Shown: positions 26,001 through 32,000 of the stretch, piece by piece
Numbering within the stretch: position 1 is the first letter of the stretch
Layout: the number at the start of each line of letters is the position of its first letter
NCBI GenBank assembly: GCA_963828125.1
Contig: CAWHDP010000002.1
Location: forward strand, 544,001-608,000
Direction of reading: 5' to 3'
DNA: 64,000 nt
From: an uncultured Chlamydiae bacterium
GTDB taxonomy: Bacteria > Chlamydiota > Chlamydiia > Chlamydiales > SM23-39
Made by a program: the position numbers

Positions 26001-29000
26001 TTTTAGCTTTATTTAGCAACTTCATTCAAGTATAATTCGATCGAATTAATAAATTAAAAGGAGTAGTTTTGTCTACTATTGAGATTGGGATTGATTTAGG
26101 AACTACTAATTCTTCCGTAGCCGTCATTCAACAAAGCGATGTGTATATTCTTAAAAATGCATTAGGAGAAGAGAGCACGCCTTCTGTTGTTTATGCTGAT
26201 AGGAACGGAAATATTGTAGTCGGATCGAAAGCAAAACGAGTAATGAATAATTCAAAAGAAAACCTGCAGAATAGCAAGGCTGAAATTAAACGCCTTATGG
26301 GGACTGCAGAAACCATTTCATTTCCAAATCTCAATAAGAAAATGCTGCCTGAAGAAATTTCCGCAGAAATCCTCAAGACTCTTAAAAGCGATGTCCAAAG
26401 AAAGTATCCCGAGATATCACTGAATGCTGCTGTGATTACTGTGCCTGCTTATTTTTCTACTGTGCAGTCCGAGGCAACGAAGCGAGCAGGAAGCTTGGCC
26501 GGTTTTAAGCAAATCGTGCTTCTCCAAGAGCCTATTGCTGCTGCAATTGCTTATGGATTTCTCAATCAAAAAAATGAAAATTGGCTGGTATACGACCTCG
26601 GAGGAGGCACTTTTGATGTTGCCCTCGTTGCCTCACGGGACGGATTTCTTACGGTTCTAGCCCATGCGGGAGATAATTTTTTAGGAGGCAAAGACTTTGA
26701 TGCCGCCATCATCCAGAATTTGATCATTCCTTCTCTTTCTGCTAAGGCCATAGTTCTCGATCCAATAACCCATTCCCAAGTCTTTAGCTATTTGAAAGAG
26801 CTCGCAGAGTCTGCAAAAATCGAGCTTACTGTCAGCGATAAAACAACCATCGACATCGATATCCAAGTAAATCAACTGCAGGTCCAACATTCCCTCGAGA
26901 TATCAAAAGAAGATCTCCTGGAGAGCTGCAGGCACCTGCTCAACAAAACAGTCGATCTCTGTAAGAAAACAATCAGCGATGCGAAAGTCGATCCTGCAAC
27001 AGTTCAAAAGATCGTCCTTGTCGGCGGTCCGACTCAGATGCCTATCCTGCAAGCCTTTTTGAAGGAGACGCTGCACATCAAAGTGGATGGATGTCTGGAC
27101 CCTATCACTGTTGTTGCAAAAGGCGCTGCTATGTTCGGCAATCAAACAAGGATCACTGAACAGAAAGAGAGTGTCAGCACATCAATCGCCGCCTGTGAGC
27201 TAGAAGTGAATTACAATCCAGTTACATCAGATGATGATCAAACAGTCACTGGGAAGGTCTTGCGCTACGCCGAAGCCGTGCAGCCCTATTCAGTGCAATT
27301 TGTGAGTTCTGATGACTCCTTTGCTTCTGAAGAGATTTTAATAAAAAACGGCAAGTTCATACTGACGCTTCCTACAGGGAAAAAGGGCACGCAGTACTGG
27401 ATCTATATTAAAGACAGCAGTGAAAAGTTGATTGCATCCGCGCCAGAAAGCATCCACATCAATCGAGGCGTTTCCATTATGGGAGCCCCTCTCCCCTATT
27501 CAATCGGAGTGTCTGTGATCACGCTGTCCTCTAACAAAGGTTATGCGGAAGCGACAGAGACGATGGAATTTTTCTTCTCTAAAAACAGCATTCTTCCTCT
27601 CAAGGAGAGAAAACGCTTTCATACCGTAGCCGACCTTAAAGCCGGATCATCCGAGAATGGCCTTCCTATTTGCATCTATGAAGGGGAATCTCTGATTACA
27701 AATCGGAACACCTTGGTGTGCCATCTGGCGATTATGGGCAAAGCGATAGCTAAAGACCTGAAGAGAGGCTCTCCTGTCGATATTACAATCGAGATCAATG
27801 AGTCCAGAGAACTCACGGTGATGGCTTATCTCCCTGATTCCGATATTACCCTTAATGCAAGAGAAACTCTCTACTTCGATGCAGCAAAAATCGACGAAGT
27901 AAAAAAGGACTTTACAGAGCAGGTGTCAAGGTCTGAATCCGTAATCGATTCCGAAGAGCCCTCGAATGAAGCGAACGTCATCAAAAATATGATTAAAGAT
28001 ATCCAATCCACCATCGACCATTCGGGAGCTGACTCAGATCAGCAGAGAAAGGCTGAAAAGCAAGTGAAGGATCTAATGATGGCATTGGACCAAATGGAAG
28101 CAAAAACAAAATATAACGGGAATGTCTCTTCATTCTGGAAAGAGTGCCAGGAGCTTTCTGATTATCTGGAAGATTGCAACCCGCCGGAAAAACGAGCGGA
28201 ATATGAAGCTGCCTATAATACCCTGCGCAAAGAGGGCCTCTCTGCCATCGCCAAGCAGGATGCAGTATGGATCGGGCATATTGTCCAGAAGTTGAACCAG
28301 CTGCATTTCAAATGCCAATTCTCTGACACCCGCTTCCTTGCTCCCTGGATTCAGGAACTGATAAAGCTGGCTGAGGAAAAAGCGCATGCCCATCCATCTC
28401 TGTCCGGCCTGATCAGCAGAGCCCAGGACGCTCTGGCTAAATCCGATGTGAAGGAAATGCAGGAAGTCATCCACGCTCTTTATCCATTTACAGGAGAAGA
28501 GGGAAAGCCTCAGGTCAAGTTTGTAAAGTCGGGAATTATGCTATGACCGCCCAACTGCCGCAAATACTGATCAGGAATTCATTCAATATCCTCGGCCTTT
28601 CTTCCTCATCAGCATTGAAAGAAATAAGAAAAAAATCCCAGCAGCTGCTTCAGTTCGCAAAAATTGAAGAAGTTCAAGAGTTCGATACGGACATCGGCCA
28701 TGTAAGGGAATTCCGGAATGAAGGCGAAATCCGCCAGGCGCTGGAAAGAGTTTCCAGCATCCAAGAACGCTTGCAGGAGATTTTCTTCTGGTTCGACGAC
28801 CACAGCATAGAAAGCCGGAAAGCCGTCGCCCTGATATCCAAGGAAGACTACAGAGGTGCTCTTGAGATTTTCGATAAAGCAGACAAGGCAAATGCCGATT
28901 GGCTTGGATGTAAAAATTTAGCCCTGACGTTGATGTTTCACGCTTTTGCCACCTCCAGCCTCGACAGCTTCTGTCGTTCATTGAATTTTTGGAAGCTCAT

Positions 29001-32000
29001 TGCGGAATCAGATGATTTTTGGAAATTCTATGAAAAGCACTATCTTTTGCATGACGAATTGGGAACTTCATCCTCTTTATTCCAGGAGTTCAGAAGCTCT
29101 ATCTGCGAAATTCTTTCAGCGAAAGCAGTTTCTTTCTACCACCAAACAAAGAATCCAGAAGCTATAGGCGCCTGCTATTCCTCATTTGGACGAATTGGAA
29201 AAATCATAGACGTTGAGATCCTTCAACCGATCATTTTGAAGGTAAAAAAAGAAATAGAAGAACTAGAGAATATAGACACCAAATTAGAGCTGGATACAGC
29301 TTCGATCAGGAGAGTCCTTAAAAAAATTCACAAATTCTTCTCTGATCTGGATAAATTTGAACTTTCTGAATACAGCCCTCTGACTCTTCTTAAAAACGAT
29401 ACTGCGGAGAAACTGAGGTCCATATCGGTCGATATCTACAATCAAAATGCCGATTCCGAAATTGCGCGCCTCTTCCTCGAACAAGGCTCCAAGCTTGCAG
29501 TGTCGGAAGCAATTGCGGACAAAATCAAGGCCGACAAAAGACAGCTCCAGGAAAACGAAACATGGCAGTCGGTTTCCGGCAAGTTTGAAAAGGTTAAAAC
29601 CTTGATCGCGGATCAGAGCCTAGAAGAGGCTAAAAGCGCCTATCTGAGCCTAGATAATGAGCTGGCTGGACAATCCGATGAATCTTCAGTAGGAAGCCGC
29701 ACCCAGCTGCTGATCAACTATTGCTCGCTGCTGATGGAGAAGGGGCATGAGCTCTTTGGAAAAAAGAAATTTGGCATTGGAATGCTTGCAATTTCCGGCC
29801 TCTTGAATAGGAAAAGCCACAAAAACGCAATTCTTGCCTTCGAGCATGCTTCAGAAATACTGAAAGACCGGATGCATCTGTTTGATTTTATCGACCCTGC
29901 TGCAAATAGAGCCTCGCTTTCAAAAAACATGGACACCATATCCGGCAATCTAACGAAGTGCGAATTAGCATCCTTGTTCGATCATCATCAGTCTTATCTG
30001 CAGACAGTAGAAGAGATAGCGCATGAGCAACGCAATGAAAACACTCAGATTGCAATAAAACTTCTGGGAGCAGCGGTCTGCTTTAGTATTTTATATCGGA
30101 GATTCTATGGCGTCACACAGAGAAAAATGTGGAAATGGATAGGATGGGGAGCGGCGATCGCATTCTATTTTTTTGTGATCATGGGTAACGACAAACCTGA
30201 GCCAAAAACGTCTTACAAAAGCAGTAGCTATCAATCCAAGCCTTCTTATTCCGCTTCATCCCCATCTTTGAGTTACGAGGAAAAAGAGATCATTGAATAT
30301 CTGCAGATAAATGAACCTGAAATCTTAAAAAACATTAGAAAAGAGGGCTACTCTGATAAACAGATAGCCCGGTATCTAATAGAACACGCTGACGACGAGG
30401 AAGAATGATAAATTTTGACAAACCCTCATTTCCTCCCGGATGGATTCTCCCAGGGGGAGCCAAGATCCTCAAAAGAGTCGACAAACAGCAGTTTGTCGAG
30501 GTATTCAGCCTTGATTCCGGCGAATACCTGTATTTATTTCATGAAGAAGAAATTGTAAAAAGACTGAAAAATCGTGACATTTCTCATGAGATATTATTTG
30601 CGAGCGGAATGCAGGTTGCCGGTAAGAGATATCCCGATCATAAAGATGGGGACATACCCGAGAGGTTGAAAAATCTGATTCAAAGAAAAGGTTTGGATGC
30701 CATTGCTGGAATGTCAACGCTTAAAAATACACTGATCAGAGACGTGATTCAGCCATTTCTGAACTGGGAAGCATATGAAAAATACGGAGTCACTCCTTCC
30801 AACGGCATTCTTTTTTTCGGACCGCCGGGTTGCGGCAAGACATTCATAGCAAAGAAGCTGGCAGAGGCTATGAGAGCCGAACTTATTGAGATGAGCGAAG
30901 GAACCGTAGGCAGTCCCTACATTCACGCAACATCAAATAACATCGTGCAAGCCTTCAGAAAGGCTGAGCAAATAGCTCCATGCGTTCTTTTTGTAGATGA
31001 AATCTCGGGATTAATGCCTAGAAGAGACAGCTTGTCCTCTTCCGAACAATATCGGGAAGCCGAGATCAGCGAATTTTTAATGCACATGGAAGGCAGCGTA
31101 AAGAAGAAGGTCTTGGTTATCGGAGCAACTAATTTTCCAGAAAGAATCGATCCGGCGATTCTACGTTCTGGACGAATGGATAAAAGGATCTTCATTCCAC
31201 CTCCGGATATAGAAGCGCGATGCGAGCTTTTCCACCTGCTGTTAGAAGAAAGACCGATTAGCAACGACATCGATTTTGATACACTTGCGAAGATCACTGA
31301 AGGGTTAATTTCCTCTGATCTGAAGTTAATTGCCAATAACGCCGCCTTGAAGGCATTGCAGGAAAACGCCTTAATATCTATGGCATTATTGGTAGAAGAG
31401 ACTTCCCGATTTAAACCCTCGTTAAGCCAAGCTGATTTGGATCGATATCTCGCATTCGAAGCCTATCGCAGAGATTGAAGCATGGACCAGCAAGGCATAA
31501 CGCCCTCTACATAAGACGTTTTTCAGATCTGTCCAGAAATTCTCAGTCCGCTGGATTTTTAACTTAGAAATAAAACCCACTTGACTATATTGGGCGTTTA
31601 TTCTAAGTTAAAAGAATGAGACCCAAAACTTGCTTTCTTGCCCTTAGCCCCCTTCTCAAAAATTCCTCGTTTACATCGAAGGAAGCTCGAGCCCTTGGAG
31701 TATCCTCGGAAGTTCTTGCCCATTACGTCAAAACAGGAAAACTGAAAAGAATCAGCCGAGGTCTCTATCGAAAAGCTGGCCATGAAGAACTTTCCCCCAC
31801 TCAATGGAATGACCTAGTAGAGGCCATTTCCATTATCCCTGGTGGAGTCGTCTGCCTCATATCAGCGCTAGCTCTTTACGATCTGACAGAAGAACTACCT
31901 CGCCAGCATTGGATTGGCATTCGGCACGGGACTTCATCTAGAAGCACCCGCCAGATTAAAATCGTCCGTTTCCGCAATCTGGAACTAGGCAAAACCGAGA

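Follow-up and report, generated by a model that had tools for sequence, protein, structure and literature searches.

The excerpted text of Mayer 2021 (PMC8215388) describes HscC of E. coli as a specialised, non-essential Hsp70 that is encoded beside a dedicated membrane-anchored co-chaperone, which does not cooperate with the partners of DnaK. Hsp70 proteins also occur in conflict systems that comparative genomics has predicted: the GAP1-N2 GTPase systems, where GrpE and proteins fused to DnaJ or TPR accompany them (Kaur et al. 2020, PMC7159879, in extract), and the CoCoNuT systems with the Hsp70-like CnuD proteins (Bell et al. 2024, PMC11090510, in extract).

The window analysed here is a stretch of 64,000 nucleotides from an uncultured Chlamydiae bacterium (contig CAWHDP010000002.1, positions 544,001 to 608,000). 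It contains a trio of genes for an Hsp70, a putative J-like adaptor, and an AAA+ ATPase. The features are listed below in window positions.

19979-20054, plus strand: tRNA-Met gene (ARAGORN), with its 3' part as the element's left attachment repeat
20241-21314, plus strand: tyrosine integrase (Pfam Phage_integrase 7.3e-30, Int_N 1.1e-06)
25512-25730, plus strand: small Xre-type HTH gene, 72 aa (Pfam HTH_3 1.6e-15)
26069-28546, plus strand: Hsp70 gene, 825 aa, with a TTG start and AGGAG ahead of it
28543-30408, plus strand: adaptor (middle) gene, 621 aa, predicted to be J-like, HPD-less, and all-helical
30405-31478, plus strand: AAA+ gene, 357 aa, predicted single-domain ATPase of the classical clade
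43072-43134, plus strand: family D5 copy of the tRNA-Met 3' part (63 nt, 89% identical to 19996-20058), which ends the element on the right

The reading frames of the trio overlap by 4 nt at both junctions, in keeping with the three overlapping genes of the earlier note. The Xre-type HTH gene lies 338 nt upstream of the Hsp70 gene and is likely the regulator of the operon; comparable small HTH_3 genes occur near the trio in L070, L046, and L047, and immediately before the GrpE-like gene in L048. The direct-repeat family D5 has three copies (19996-20058, 43072-43134, and 60997-61059), and the GC content drops from 0.51 to 0.44 at 20 kb. The trio is cargo of a ~23-kb integrative element between the tRNA-Met repeats, where AbiEi/AbiEii adjoin it. 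The island location claimed before was confirmed, with the tRNA-Met repeats as its bounds.

The trio resembles HscC and the tail-anchored DjlC/DjlB in that the gene of a specialised Hsp70 adjoins that of a dedicated membrane-anchored co-chaperone (PMC8215388, in extract), and the nucleotide-binding domain of its Hsp70 is 33% identical to HscC. However, BLAST shows no similarity in sequence between the adaptor and DjlC (best E 0.25), and the adaptor lacks HPD, whereas DjlB and DjlC keep H-P-E. Unlike the HscC system, the trio always includes an AAA+ gene, most of its relatives also have a private GrpE-like gene, and the whole set is mobile.

Properties of the three proteins

The Pfam HSP70 match (9.3e-84) covers only residues 6-358 of the 825-aa protein, and PADLOC gave no match. 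In the AlphaFold model (pLDDT 78.7), the nucleotide-binding domain (1-360) is followed by an extra beta-sandwich insert (~376-464) and a substrate-binding beta domain (~479-600); a long helical lid (608-808) comes next, and the C-terminus is a conserved tail. A Foldseek search with this model matched full-length DnaK/BiP with E values from 1e-36 to 1e-30 over 610-785 columns. As modelled, the protein is a complete Hsp70 with an extra beta insert; the 465 residues previously described as having no family do lie beyond the Pfam match, but they fold in the model as a divergent substrate-binding domain, lid, and insert that align with DnaK/BiP. The ATPase motifs DLGTTNS and DLGGGTFD are invariant in all 26 cassette Hsp70s, except that the second residue of DLGGGTFD is L or F; VGGPTQ hardly varies in the same set. 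The protein is predicted from its sequence to be ATPase-competent. It falls far short of the curated NCBIfam cut-offs for DnaK/HscA (282.7 vs 648 bits). It differs from HscC in its length of 825 aa, in the beta insert with the long lid, and in V150, which aligns with an Arg in E. coli HscC and in the DnaK of the same genome; this position is Val or Ile in 26/26 cassette Hsp70s. The Arg is presumably a J-domain contact in DnaK.

No family in Pfam, NCBIfam, or PADLOC was found for the adaptor. Its AlphaFold model consists entirely of helices (pLDDT 91.5), fold searches with it returned generic helical matches only, and Pfam DnaJ does not match. Aligned with a J-domain alignment by hhalign, residues 13-79 fell on J positions 2-61 (probability 80.9%, E 1.2e-5). 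This single profile comparison, which supports the J-like, HPD-less middle protein proposed before, indicates that the N-terminus is probably a J-like domain that has lost HPD. The remainder is a predicted helical scaffold with one membrane helix. HPD aligns with K40-I41-E42, the family having K/I/(D,G,E) at this position; one adaptor out of 80 contains the string HPD, in a shifted register. The hydrophobic membrane helix (~529-547) is the single one that had been claimed, but since a conserved tail of ~70 aa follows it, the adaptor is not strictly tail-anchored. It should be noted that many members of the adaptor family end in a soluble domain and that the predicted membrane anchor is not universal. 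HMMER searches with the adaptor over 1.84 billion representatives reproduced 295 proteins at E<=1e-3, of which 167 reach E<=1e-10, matching mostly residues ~5-345.

Pfam assigned residues 135-265 of the third protein to AAA (7.3e-34), together with AAA_lid_3, and left an N-terminal domain of ~95 aa with no assigned fold. Its homologues show no variation in Walker A (GPPGCGKT), Walker B (D198-E199), sensor 1 (T242-N243), or the arginines R254 and R257. The pore-loop motif is aromatic-I/V-H, with H174 invariant in 24/24 aligned homologues and followed by A in the chlamydial clade and G in the distant loci. By these motifs, the protein is predicted to be a classical AAA+ ATPase whose ATPase motifs are intact and whose pore loop is aromatic. 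NCBIfam gave only sub-threshold DnaK/HscA and CDC48/IteA rows for the trio, and the Pfam and PADLOC results reported earlier for the three proteins were reproduced.

Relatives of the trio and their gene neighbourhoods

The trio was found in identical order in eight further chlamydial-clade loci from seven related genomes, with identities of 72-92% for the Hsp70, 79-87% for the AAA+ protein, and 57-88% for the middle gene. The latter is the least conserved of the three in 7/8 loci, in agreement with the faster evolution suggested earlier, but not in the closest locus L078 (88% vs 86% for AAA+). The adaptor occurs in 2/13 genomes of the same genus and in 7/300 of the phylum; the family's other genera lack it (0/23 genomes). 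Meanwhile, the Hsp70s of L045, L079, and L080 are near-identical though they come from three different families. The earlier view of the three genes as a conserved, horizontally mobile unit is supported.

The trio genes recur at 23-44% identity in 32 distant loci carrying labels of many bacterial and archaeal phyla, a range that MAG binning could inflate although several of these loci are on contigs of 0.2-2.7 Mb. The recurrence extends well beyond the three Saccharibacteria loci. In 32/32 distant loci, the J-like gene immediately follows an Hsp70 match, which is full-length in most cases, and in 29/32 an AAA+ gene lies downstream. The usual cassette there is larger and contains five to seven genes coding for a membrane-anchored GrpE-like protein, Hsp70, the J-like adaptor, tagged membrane proteins, AAA+, and DUF6804. 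The GrpE-like gene, which has an N-terminal hydrophobic stretch read from sequence as a membrane helix, was seen in 26/32 loci, and two of the four representatives scanned matched Pfam GrpE (2.8e-9 and 7.3e-8). Four unrelated families of membrane proteins (single-pass coiled-coil, RDD, Cys-rich, and Yip1) lie between the adaptor and AAA+ genes, and all share the N-terminal tag h-[DN]-h-D-L-x-F-L-D. The genome studied here has no second GrpE and no tagged membrane proteins; its single GrpE belongs to a separate housekeeping grpE-dnaK pair elsewhere, and the trio Hsp70 machine is therefore non-housekeeping. Within this widespread mobile cassette, the trio forms a reduced, divergent branch and is not the stand-alone novelty proposed in the earlier note. 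No description of the cassette was found in the literature searched, so that, within it, the cassette is apparently undescribed, as had been said of the trio.

The cassette shares with GAP1-N2 and CoCoNuT the presence of an Hsp70, sometimes with GrpE and a DnaJ/TPR-fused partner, in mobile, patchy, defence-linked gene sets. However, as the extracts of PMC7159879 and PMC11090510 present them, those systems are built on TRAFAC GTPases or on McrBC GTPases with nucleases, none of which was found in the cassette loci examined. The Walker motifs of CnuD are degenerate (PMC11090510, in extract), whereas the cassette Hsp70s keep their ATPase motifs, and a classical AAA+ partner and tagged membrane proteins are absent from the extracted descriptions of both systems.

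Integrative elements carry the trio, and defence genes are often its neighbours. An AbiE pair is present in 4/9 chlamydial-clade loci, an association that may come from shared island ancestry and not from function, and on the one viral contig the cassette comes after GajA- and GajB-like genes. PADLOC matched 17/106 of the nearest flanking ORFs, in 12/32 distant loci, which is a raw count without a background control; 20/32 distant loci had no match among the four nearest genes, and several of the matches (HerA/TraG-like, SNase, methylases) are not defence-specific. No conserved nuclease, protease, or pore-forming effector accompanies the trio in the loci examined, trypsin-like or S49 peptidases being present in a few loci only. 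From its context, the cassette possibly has a defence role.

A proposed remodelling machine and its alternatives

We consider it an even call that the trio and its Xre-type regulator form a self-contained membrane Hsp70/AAA+ protein-remodelling machine, carried as conflict cargo by the tRNA-Met element, the role being read from context. The adaptor would keep the Hsp70 at the inner membrane by way of a co-evolved J interface, which may be non-canonical because Val/Ile replaces the DnaK/HscC Arg in the Hsp70 and the adaptor lacks HPD. The Hsp70 would then capture a client segment at the membrane, and the AAA+ ring would thread it and unfold or extract the client. Nucleotide exchange in this genome would have to depend on the housekeeping GrpE or be spontaneous, and the clients here would be other than tagged cassette proteins.

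Every recognisable part of the trio is of the chaperone type. Its Hsp70, J-type partner, and ring AAA+ with an aromatic pore loop, and the GrpE-type factor of the wider cassette, resemble DnaK-DnaJ-GrpE with ClpB, and the pairing of an Hsp70 with an AAA+ ring follows DnaK-ClpB disaggregase logic, as outlined in extracted sources. The trio might accordingly be mobile proteostasis or stress-tolerance cargo, an add-on chaperone/disaggregase set against proteotoxic or envelope stress, and proteostasis islands such as tLST do spread horizontally (PMC8290217, in extract). The absence of an effector agrees with this, and the S49/trypsin-like peptidases and membrane proteins of some loci fit envelope quality control. 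We nevertheless regard it as unlikely, given the very low, patchy prevalence of the trio and its place beside defence genes in elements with integrases/recombinases. Moreover, both the Hsp70 and the adaptor depart from the canonical J interface, which would isolate them from the host chaperone network, and the tagged membrane proteins that the cassette encodes suggest specific, not general, clients. The AAA+ protein has one ATPase domain without the M-domain of ClpB, no small heat-shock protein was found, and, unlike in DnaK-DnaJ-GrpE, the cassette GrpE-like and adaptor proteins are predicted to be membrane-anchored.

An equally improbable reading is that the machine serves the life cycle of its element, for example by remodelling replication/packaging complexes or by helping to insert or extract membrane or secreted proteins that the element encodes. 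Phages, too, recruit functions of the DnaK/DnaJ type or encode them. The trio does lie beside genes for integrases and serine recombinases, primase-helicase genes, and terminase-like genes. The nearest Atlas cluster bears the name 'putative J domain-containing protein' and has Uroviricota as its commonest recorded taxon, and phages encode J-domain proteins and DnaK homologues (PMC12619734, in extract). The full cassette was found on a viral contig, but on a single one of 2.9 million. The flanking elements are of such different types (tyrosine integrase, serine recombinase, conjugation ATPases, IS elements) that no single life cycle is shared, and the cassette moves between them as a unit, like accessory cargo.

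The AAA+ protein shares the classical-clade domain with Cdc48/VAT-type proteins and with IetAS, which is reportedly a defence system of Gao et al. 2020. IetA was its best defence-library match in PADLOC (5.9e-32 here and 9.5e-33 in L013), and CDC48 its best NCBIfam match (173 bits vs a cut-off of 802.65). The protein has a single AAA domain with no Cdc48 N-domain match, and IteA_antiphage (102.8 bits vs a cut-off of 510) scored below the general CDC48, PAN, and FtsH models, so that of the "Cdc48/IetA-like" label only a generic classical-AAA similarity holds. An IetAS-like defence with the AAA+ protein as core and the Hsp70 pair as accessory is hardly credible, since the AAA+ protein has the Hsp70 and the adaptor as its invariant partners and no subtilisin-type IetS protease was found among the window ORFs scanned with Pfam.

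For the membrane remodelling machine, we favour a conflict role as the most likely one in this context, with phages or other mobile elements as the targets of defence or exclusion. The machine would act at the membrane on proteins of the invader or on sentinel proteins.

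Gene layout and the surrounding integrative element

The three genes of the module lie on the plus strand of the window where the earlier note had placed them, and a 4-nt overlap was found at each junction. Directly past the tRNA-Met gene, the GC content drops from ~0.51 to 0.44.

Features of the window around the three-gene module
19979-20054: tRNA-Met (position according to ARAGORN), its 3' part repeated downstream
19996-20058, 43072-43134 and 60997-61059: copies of the tRNA-Met 3' part, ~48 nt being common to all three
20241-21314: tyrosine integrase, following tRNA-Met
23043-25135, minus strand: IS21 pair (IstA-like transposase and IstB ATPase)
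25220-25528: ORF of 102 aa with a DnaG-type zinc ribbon only, adjoining the IS21 pair
25512-25730: Xre-type HTH gene, 72 aa, 338 nt upstream of the Hsp70 gene
26069-28546, plus strand: Hsp70, 825 aa, TTG start preceded by AGGAG
28543-30408, plus strand: J-like adaptor (the middle protein), 621 aa
30405-31478, plus strand: AAA+ ATPase, 357 aa
31616-33057: complete AbiEi/AbiEii pair directly downstream of the AAA+ gene (PADLOC 4.8e-86 and 1.7e-74)
37236-41729 and 50163-60793 (minus strand): two large RHS-repeat proteins, 1497 and 2825 aa
45970-47115: Schlafen/AlbA_2 and HATPase_c_4 protein (PADLOC pAgo-associated models, 7e-18)
61221-62294: second integrase, following the third tRNA-Met copy

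As the 3' part of tRNA-Met recurs at both downstream positions, we conclude that the window contains tandem elements at one tRNA. The module is located in the first of them, which spans ~23 kb and also carries the IS21 pair, the truncated primase zinc-ribbon ORF, the AbiEi/AbiEii genes, a DUF3800 gene, and an RHS protein. The third copy is itself called by ARAGORN as a 67-nt tRNA-Met. A scan for promoters and terminators gave counts at the level of the shuffled sequence, and no GrpE-like remnant was found upstream of the Hsp70 gene of the window.

Several further observations concern the cargo. At the place corresponding to the zinc-ribbon ORF, the closest relative (locus L078) has a 335-aa primase zinc-ribbon gene together with a DUF5906 gene, so the IS21 insertion may have cut the primase-helicase of the window element. 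A gene similar to that of the Schlafen/AlbA_2 and HATPase_c_4 protein is also present upstream of the module in L078. The region downstream of the second RHS gene has direct repeats of 167-300 nt that are nearly identical (50163-53666), along with short RHS and DUF687 ORFs, and resembles an array in which orphan toxin tips are kept with immunity genes.

Predicted architecture of the three proteins

The family assignments of the earlier note were reproduced. In Pfam, HSP70 covers residues 6-358 only of the first protein, AAA covers residues 135-265 of the third, and the middle protein matches no family; in PADLOC, the AAA+ protein matches IetA (5.9e-32) and the other two match nothing. The NCBIfam search of the three proteins likewise returned sub-threshold rows only.

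The nucleotide-binding domain of the Hsp70, a domain of actin fold marked by phosphate-1, phosphate-2, and adenosine motifs, was recognized by PF00012 at 282.2 bits (cut-off 20.6). In all 26 of the aligned cassette Hsp70s, the motifs DLGTTNS and DLGGGTFD are invariant (the second position of the latter being L or F) and VGGPTQ is nearly so. The AlphaFold model of the window protein (pLDDT 78.7) was divided as follows.

Predicted domains of the window Hsp70 (AlphaFold model)
Residues 1-360: nucleotide-binding domain
Residues ~376-464: beta-sandwich insert, outside the canonical Hsp70 layout
Residues ~479-600: substrate-binding beta domain
Residues 608-808: helical lid

The Foldseek comparison aligned this model with full-length DnaK, BiP, and Hsc70 over 610-785 columns (E 1e-36 to 1e-30). 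Therefore, the 465 residues that the earlier note had described as lacking a family are better regarded as a divergent substrate-binding domain and lid, and the predicted protein has both parts expected of the Hsp70 superfamily after the nucleotide-binding domain. The protein scored far below the equivalog cut-offs of DnaK (NF001413, 282.7 vs. 648) and HscA (TIGR01991, 255.7 vs. 708.55).

It should be added that the extreme C-terminus of the Hsp70 (window residues 821-825) is conserved in the alignment of the cassette Hsp70s, A3, as L-S-G-I-T-R/K; the window protein reads K-S-G-I-M-L, and G822 and I823 are invariant. This conserved end may serve as a docking peptide, by analogy with the EEVD tail of eukaryotic Hsp70s.

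The HMMER counts reported earlier for the middle protein (P0002) were obtained again: among 1.84 billion representatives, 295 proteins matched at E<=1e-3 and 167 at E<=1e-10, mostly over residues ~5-345. The AlphaFold model of the protein is all-helical (pLDDT 91.5). Its helix 499-547 contains a hydrophobic stretch (~529-547) that is predicted to be a membrane helix and thus a co-chaperone anchor near the C-terminus; a disordered linker and a small three-helix tail of ~70 aa follow, and this tail is conserved within the chlamydial clade. The C-terminus varies across the family, being a soluble beta-rich domain in many members and a membrane helix in others. The fold of the adaptor has no clear relative in the structural searches: Foldseek against the PDB gave nothing at E<=1e-3, the best matches being TPR proteins (P58IPK, Tom71) with TM-scores of 0.10-0.18, and the best Z in a wide VIA-align search was 9.8, all matches being generic helical bundles under the noise level quoted for helical proteins.

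The likeness to J-domains was seen at the level of profiles. The N-terminus of the family reads NAYxxLGLxxSAxxKxIxKRxKEIxxxLKI(D/E)ExPxY...VKxAxxxLxxPKxRxxEYFFWF, and hhalign matched the 80-member adaptor profile to 14 J-domains with a probability of 80.9% (E 1.2e-5) over 60 columns comprising helices I-III. No Pfam family, PF00226 included, was found in P0002 at E<=0.01, and a PDB profile search listed J-domains at E 0.14-0.27 only. The HPD tripeptide, which stands between helices II and III of J-domains, is replaced by K40-I41-E42 in the window adaptor. Across the family, the aligned positions hold K in 49 and I in 72 of the 80 sequences and then D in 39, G in 20, or E in 14; a single adaptor contains an HPD string, and there it is shifted. 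A corresponding change was found in the Hsp70. The DnaK of the same genome and E. coli HscC have an arginine in the segment (K/V)R(I/L)I(N/P)EP, which is presumably the DnaK arginine that contacts the HPD of the J-domain, and this position is V150 in the window Hsp70 and Val or Ile in 26 of 26 cassette Hsp70s. As judged from the sequences, the loss of HPD from the adaptor and of arginine from the Hsp70 would fit a private interface insulated from the DnaK/DnaJ network of the host.

No variation was seen at Walker A, Walker B, sensor 1, or the two arginines of the AAA+ protein in 24 of 24 aligned homologues, all of which share an aromatic-hydrophobic-His pore loop. The N-domain of ~95 aa is conserved as well, and the best score of its comparison with the ESM Atlas (0.77) was uninformative. 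The single AAA domain sets the protein apart from Cdc48/VAT, which are defined by two tandem AAA domains and an N-terminal double-psi barrel; the scores were well under the cut-offs for both TIGR01243 (173 vs. 802.65) and IetA NF042959 (102.8 vs. 510). No peptidase family, and hence no IetS-type serine protease that would complete an IetAS system, was present among the 30 window ORFs scanned. A complex prediction between residues 1-350 of the adaptor and the N-domain of the AAA+ protein (1-110), run without controls, returned a score of 0.00, that is, no answer.

Occurrence of the module in chlamydial and distant genomes

Among the close relatives, the module is rare. The adaptor was found in two of 13 genomes of the same genus and in none of 23 genomes of other genera in the family; one strong and one weak match were seen in 24 genomes from other families of the order, and the family profile detected the adaptor in seven of 300 genomes of the phylum (six of the 284 of high quality). 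The order Hsp70-adaptor-AAA+ was kept, with genes overlapping or adjacent, in eight further loci of seven genomes. In the closest of them, L078 (proteins 88-92% identical), two overlapping ORFs, 537 and 252 aa long, stand in place of a single Hsp70 gene (L078:7002-9306), owing to either a frameshift or an assembly error.

The neighbours in the chlamydial clade are integrases or a serine recombinase, primase-helicase genes, AlpA, a terminase, Schlafen/AlbA genes, and a VWA-PP2C-kinase triad. The AbiEi/AbiEii pair lies near the module in four of nine loci (the window, L045, L079, and L080), and the ORFs upstream of the trio in this clade are unrelated to each other. In L081 (385-3828, minus strand), genes for a VWA protein, a PP2C phosphatase, and a protein kinase stand directly upstream of the Hsp70 gene and divergent from it, a group that we take to resemble the TerY-phosphorylation triad. 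A true J-domain gene was considered as a part of the module in one relative (genome G005, L070:5387-5896, minus strand). It encodes 169 aa with HPD present (Pfam 1.7e-14) and lies among phage-like genes ~1.5 kb upstream of the Hsp70 gene; since it is not conserved in the other loci, it was left out.

A wider search, performed with a 22-member adaptor alignment and one genome per species, yielded 32 distant loci. According to the record titles, they belong to Omnitrophota, several candidate-phyla-radiation lineages, Bdellovibrionales, Akkermansia, Alpha- and Gammaproteobacteria, and Bacteroidota, and among archaea to Woesearchaeota and Thaumarchaeota/Nitrosopumilaceae. An Hsp70 match stands directly upstream of the adaptor in all 32 loci, full-length in most and shorter or in pieces in L029, L030, L033, L036, L038, and L044; an AAA+ gene follows the adaptor in 29. 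By tblastn, the identities were 36-40% over ~820 aa for the Hsp70 where intact, 23-29% over ~340 aa for the adaptor, and 38-44% for the AAA+ protein. Several of these loci are located on contigs of 0.2-2.7 Mb, so binning errors cannot account for all of them. Little difference was seen between cassettes that bear the labels of different phyla; recent transfer may be the cause, or mobile DNA that was mis-binned, or the two together.

The distant loci contain additional genes. The ORF clustering of all 32 loci revealed a gene of ~175 aa directly upstream of the Hsp70 gene in 26 of them; its N-terminal hydrophobic stretch was read from sequence as a membrane helix, and two of the four representatives scanned matched Pfam GrpE above the cut-off. 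Four unrelated families of small membrane proteins are encoded between the adaptor and AAA+ genes, and a DUF6804 membrane protein is present in 11 loci.

Membrane-protein families encoded between the adaptor and AAA+ genes
Single-pass coiled-coil family: 17 loci
RDD family: 4 loci
Cys-rich ectodomain family: 3 loci
Yip1 family: 2 loci

A common N-terminal motif or tag, h-[DN]-h-D-L-x-F-L-D, occupies residues ~8-16 in all four families (ORFs in L013-L032).

The window has the core of this cassette, namely the insert-bearing Hsp70, the J-like adaptor, and the AAA+ gene in order. A membrane-anchored GrpE-like gene of its own and tagged membrane proteins were found neither in the window nor in the genome: the best tblastn match of the proteins of clusters 3, 4, 5, and 8 to the window had an E of 0.087, the single GrpE match of the genome adjoins the housekeeping DnaK, and in the 95%-complete genome a strict regular expression for the tag gave no matches and a tag HMM none at E<=10. 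A quick tree placed every cassette Hsp70 in a single clade (100% SH-aLRT); within it, the seven chlamydial sequences group together (99%) on a long branch that departs from a polytomy, and the term "reduced variant" therefore refers here to gene content and not to the direction of change.

In the flanks of the distant loci, 17 of the 106 nearest ORFs, in 12 of the 32 loci, match PADLOC at 1e-5, counted without a background control. These matches include SoFic, restriction and methylase genes, GajB, RhuM-type PDC-S05, and NYN, some of which are not specific to defence. Serine recombinases flank seven loci. On the single viral contig that carries the cassette, GajA- and GajB-like genes lie immediately upstream of it, and a gene for a trypsin-like peptidase lies downstream. 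As viral contigs gave this one locus only, the idea that the cassette is mainly phage-borne was rejected.

Possible mechanism and meaning

Of the characterised systems, the nearest analogue is that of HscC in E. coli, whose partners DjlC and DjlB are tail-anchored (PMC8215388). An anchor near the C-terminus is predicted for the window adaptor too, yet the adaptor is no homologue of DjlC: the best BLASTP match of P0002 to E. coli DjlC had an E of 0.25 over 31 residues. The predicted conflict systems containing Hsp70 rest on GTPases or McrBC (PMC7159879, PMC11090510), and a 2026 review presents bacterial DnaK derivatives as unexplored (PMC13580251). No description of the cassette was found in the full-text literature searched, which lies mostly outside subscription journals, supplements aside. 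The window holds a new, minimal chlamydial variant of a mobile Hsp70/AAA+ cassette that is apparently undescribed.

The analysis shows which parts the module has, that their catalytic motifs are intact, and that they are strictly linked and mobile; how they might work together can be outlined. The adaptor would dock the Hsp70 through a non-canonical J-like contact and place it at the membrane, where the Hsp70 would bind a segment of the client and the AAA+ ring would thread it. In the full cassette, the shared N-terminal tag could mark the membrane proteins as clients, sensors, or adaptors. As the chlamydial form comes without tagged proteins and the GrpE-like protein, its core would have to act on other proteins, with nucleotide exchange being spontaneous or borrowed.

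The earlier note had read the trio as an ATP-driven conflict or protein-remodelling system; its observation stands, and this interpretation is supported in part. Since the module lies on an island and is extremely patchy in its occurrence, we put a remodelling machine with a putative conflict role first, and consider the chances of this statement as a whole to be roughly even. The same mobile set of chaperone parts might be plain proteostasis cargo, which we regard as unlikely, and it is similarly doubtful that it serves as a selfish helper of the element carrying it.

The conflict reading may also be taken further. The mitochondrial import motor has a J-like subunit devoid of HPD, a membrane-anchored J partner, and GrpE. 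By analogy, the cassette could be the prokaryotic equivalent of such organellar Hsp70 motors that are tethered to membranes; here the motor would be joined to an AAA+ extractor of the Cdc48/Msp1 style and would work as an immune device. Its targets would be invader proteins that are inserted into or pass through the membrane, or else tagged membrane proteins of the cassette itself that act as sentinels and have been perturbed. These it would extract and unfold, resulting in blocked or abortive infection; the three-gene chlamydial form would be a minimal version acting directly on foreign clients. We consider this extended picture a long shot.

The cassette would represent a complete private Hsp70 cycle with a J partner working without HPD, and it would show a route by which an Hsp70 and its co-chaperone become insulated from the network of the host. 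It would also be an Hsp70 physically coupled, within one operon, to a single-ring AAA+ unfoldase, and it moves on mobile elements among genomes whose labels cover many phyla of bacteria and archaea. Should it be a defence system, the known immune mechanisms would be extended by protein remodelling that chaperones drive at the membrane. The value of the three-gene chlamydial form is that it reveals the minimal conserved core, namely the Hsp70, the adaptor, and the AAA+ protein, without an exchange factor or tagged proteins. The finding is of interest for chaperone biology and possibly for immunity.
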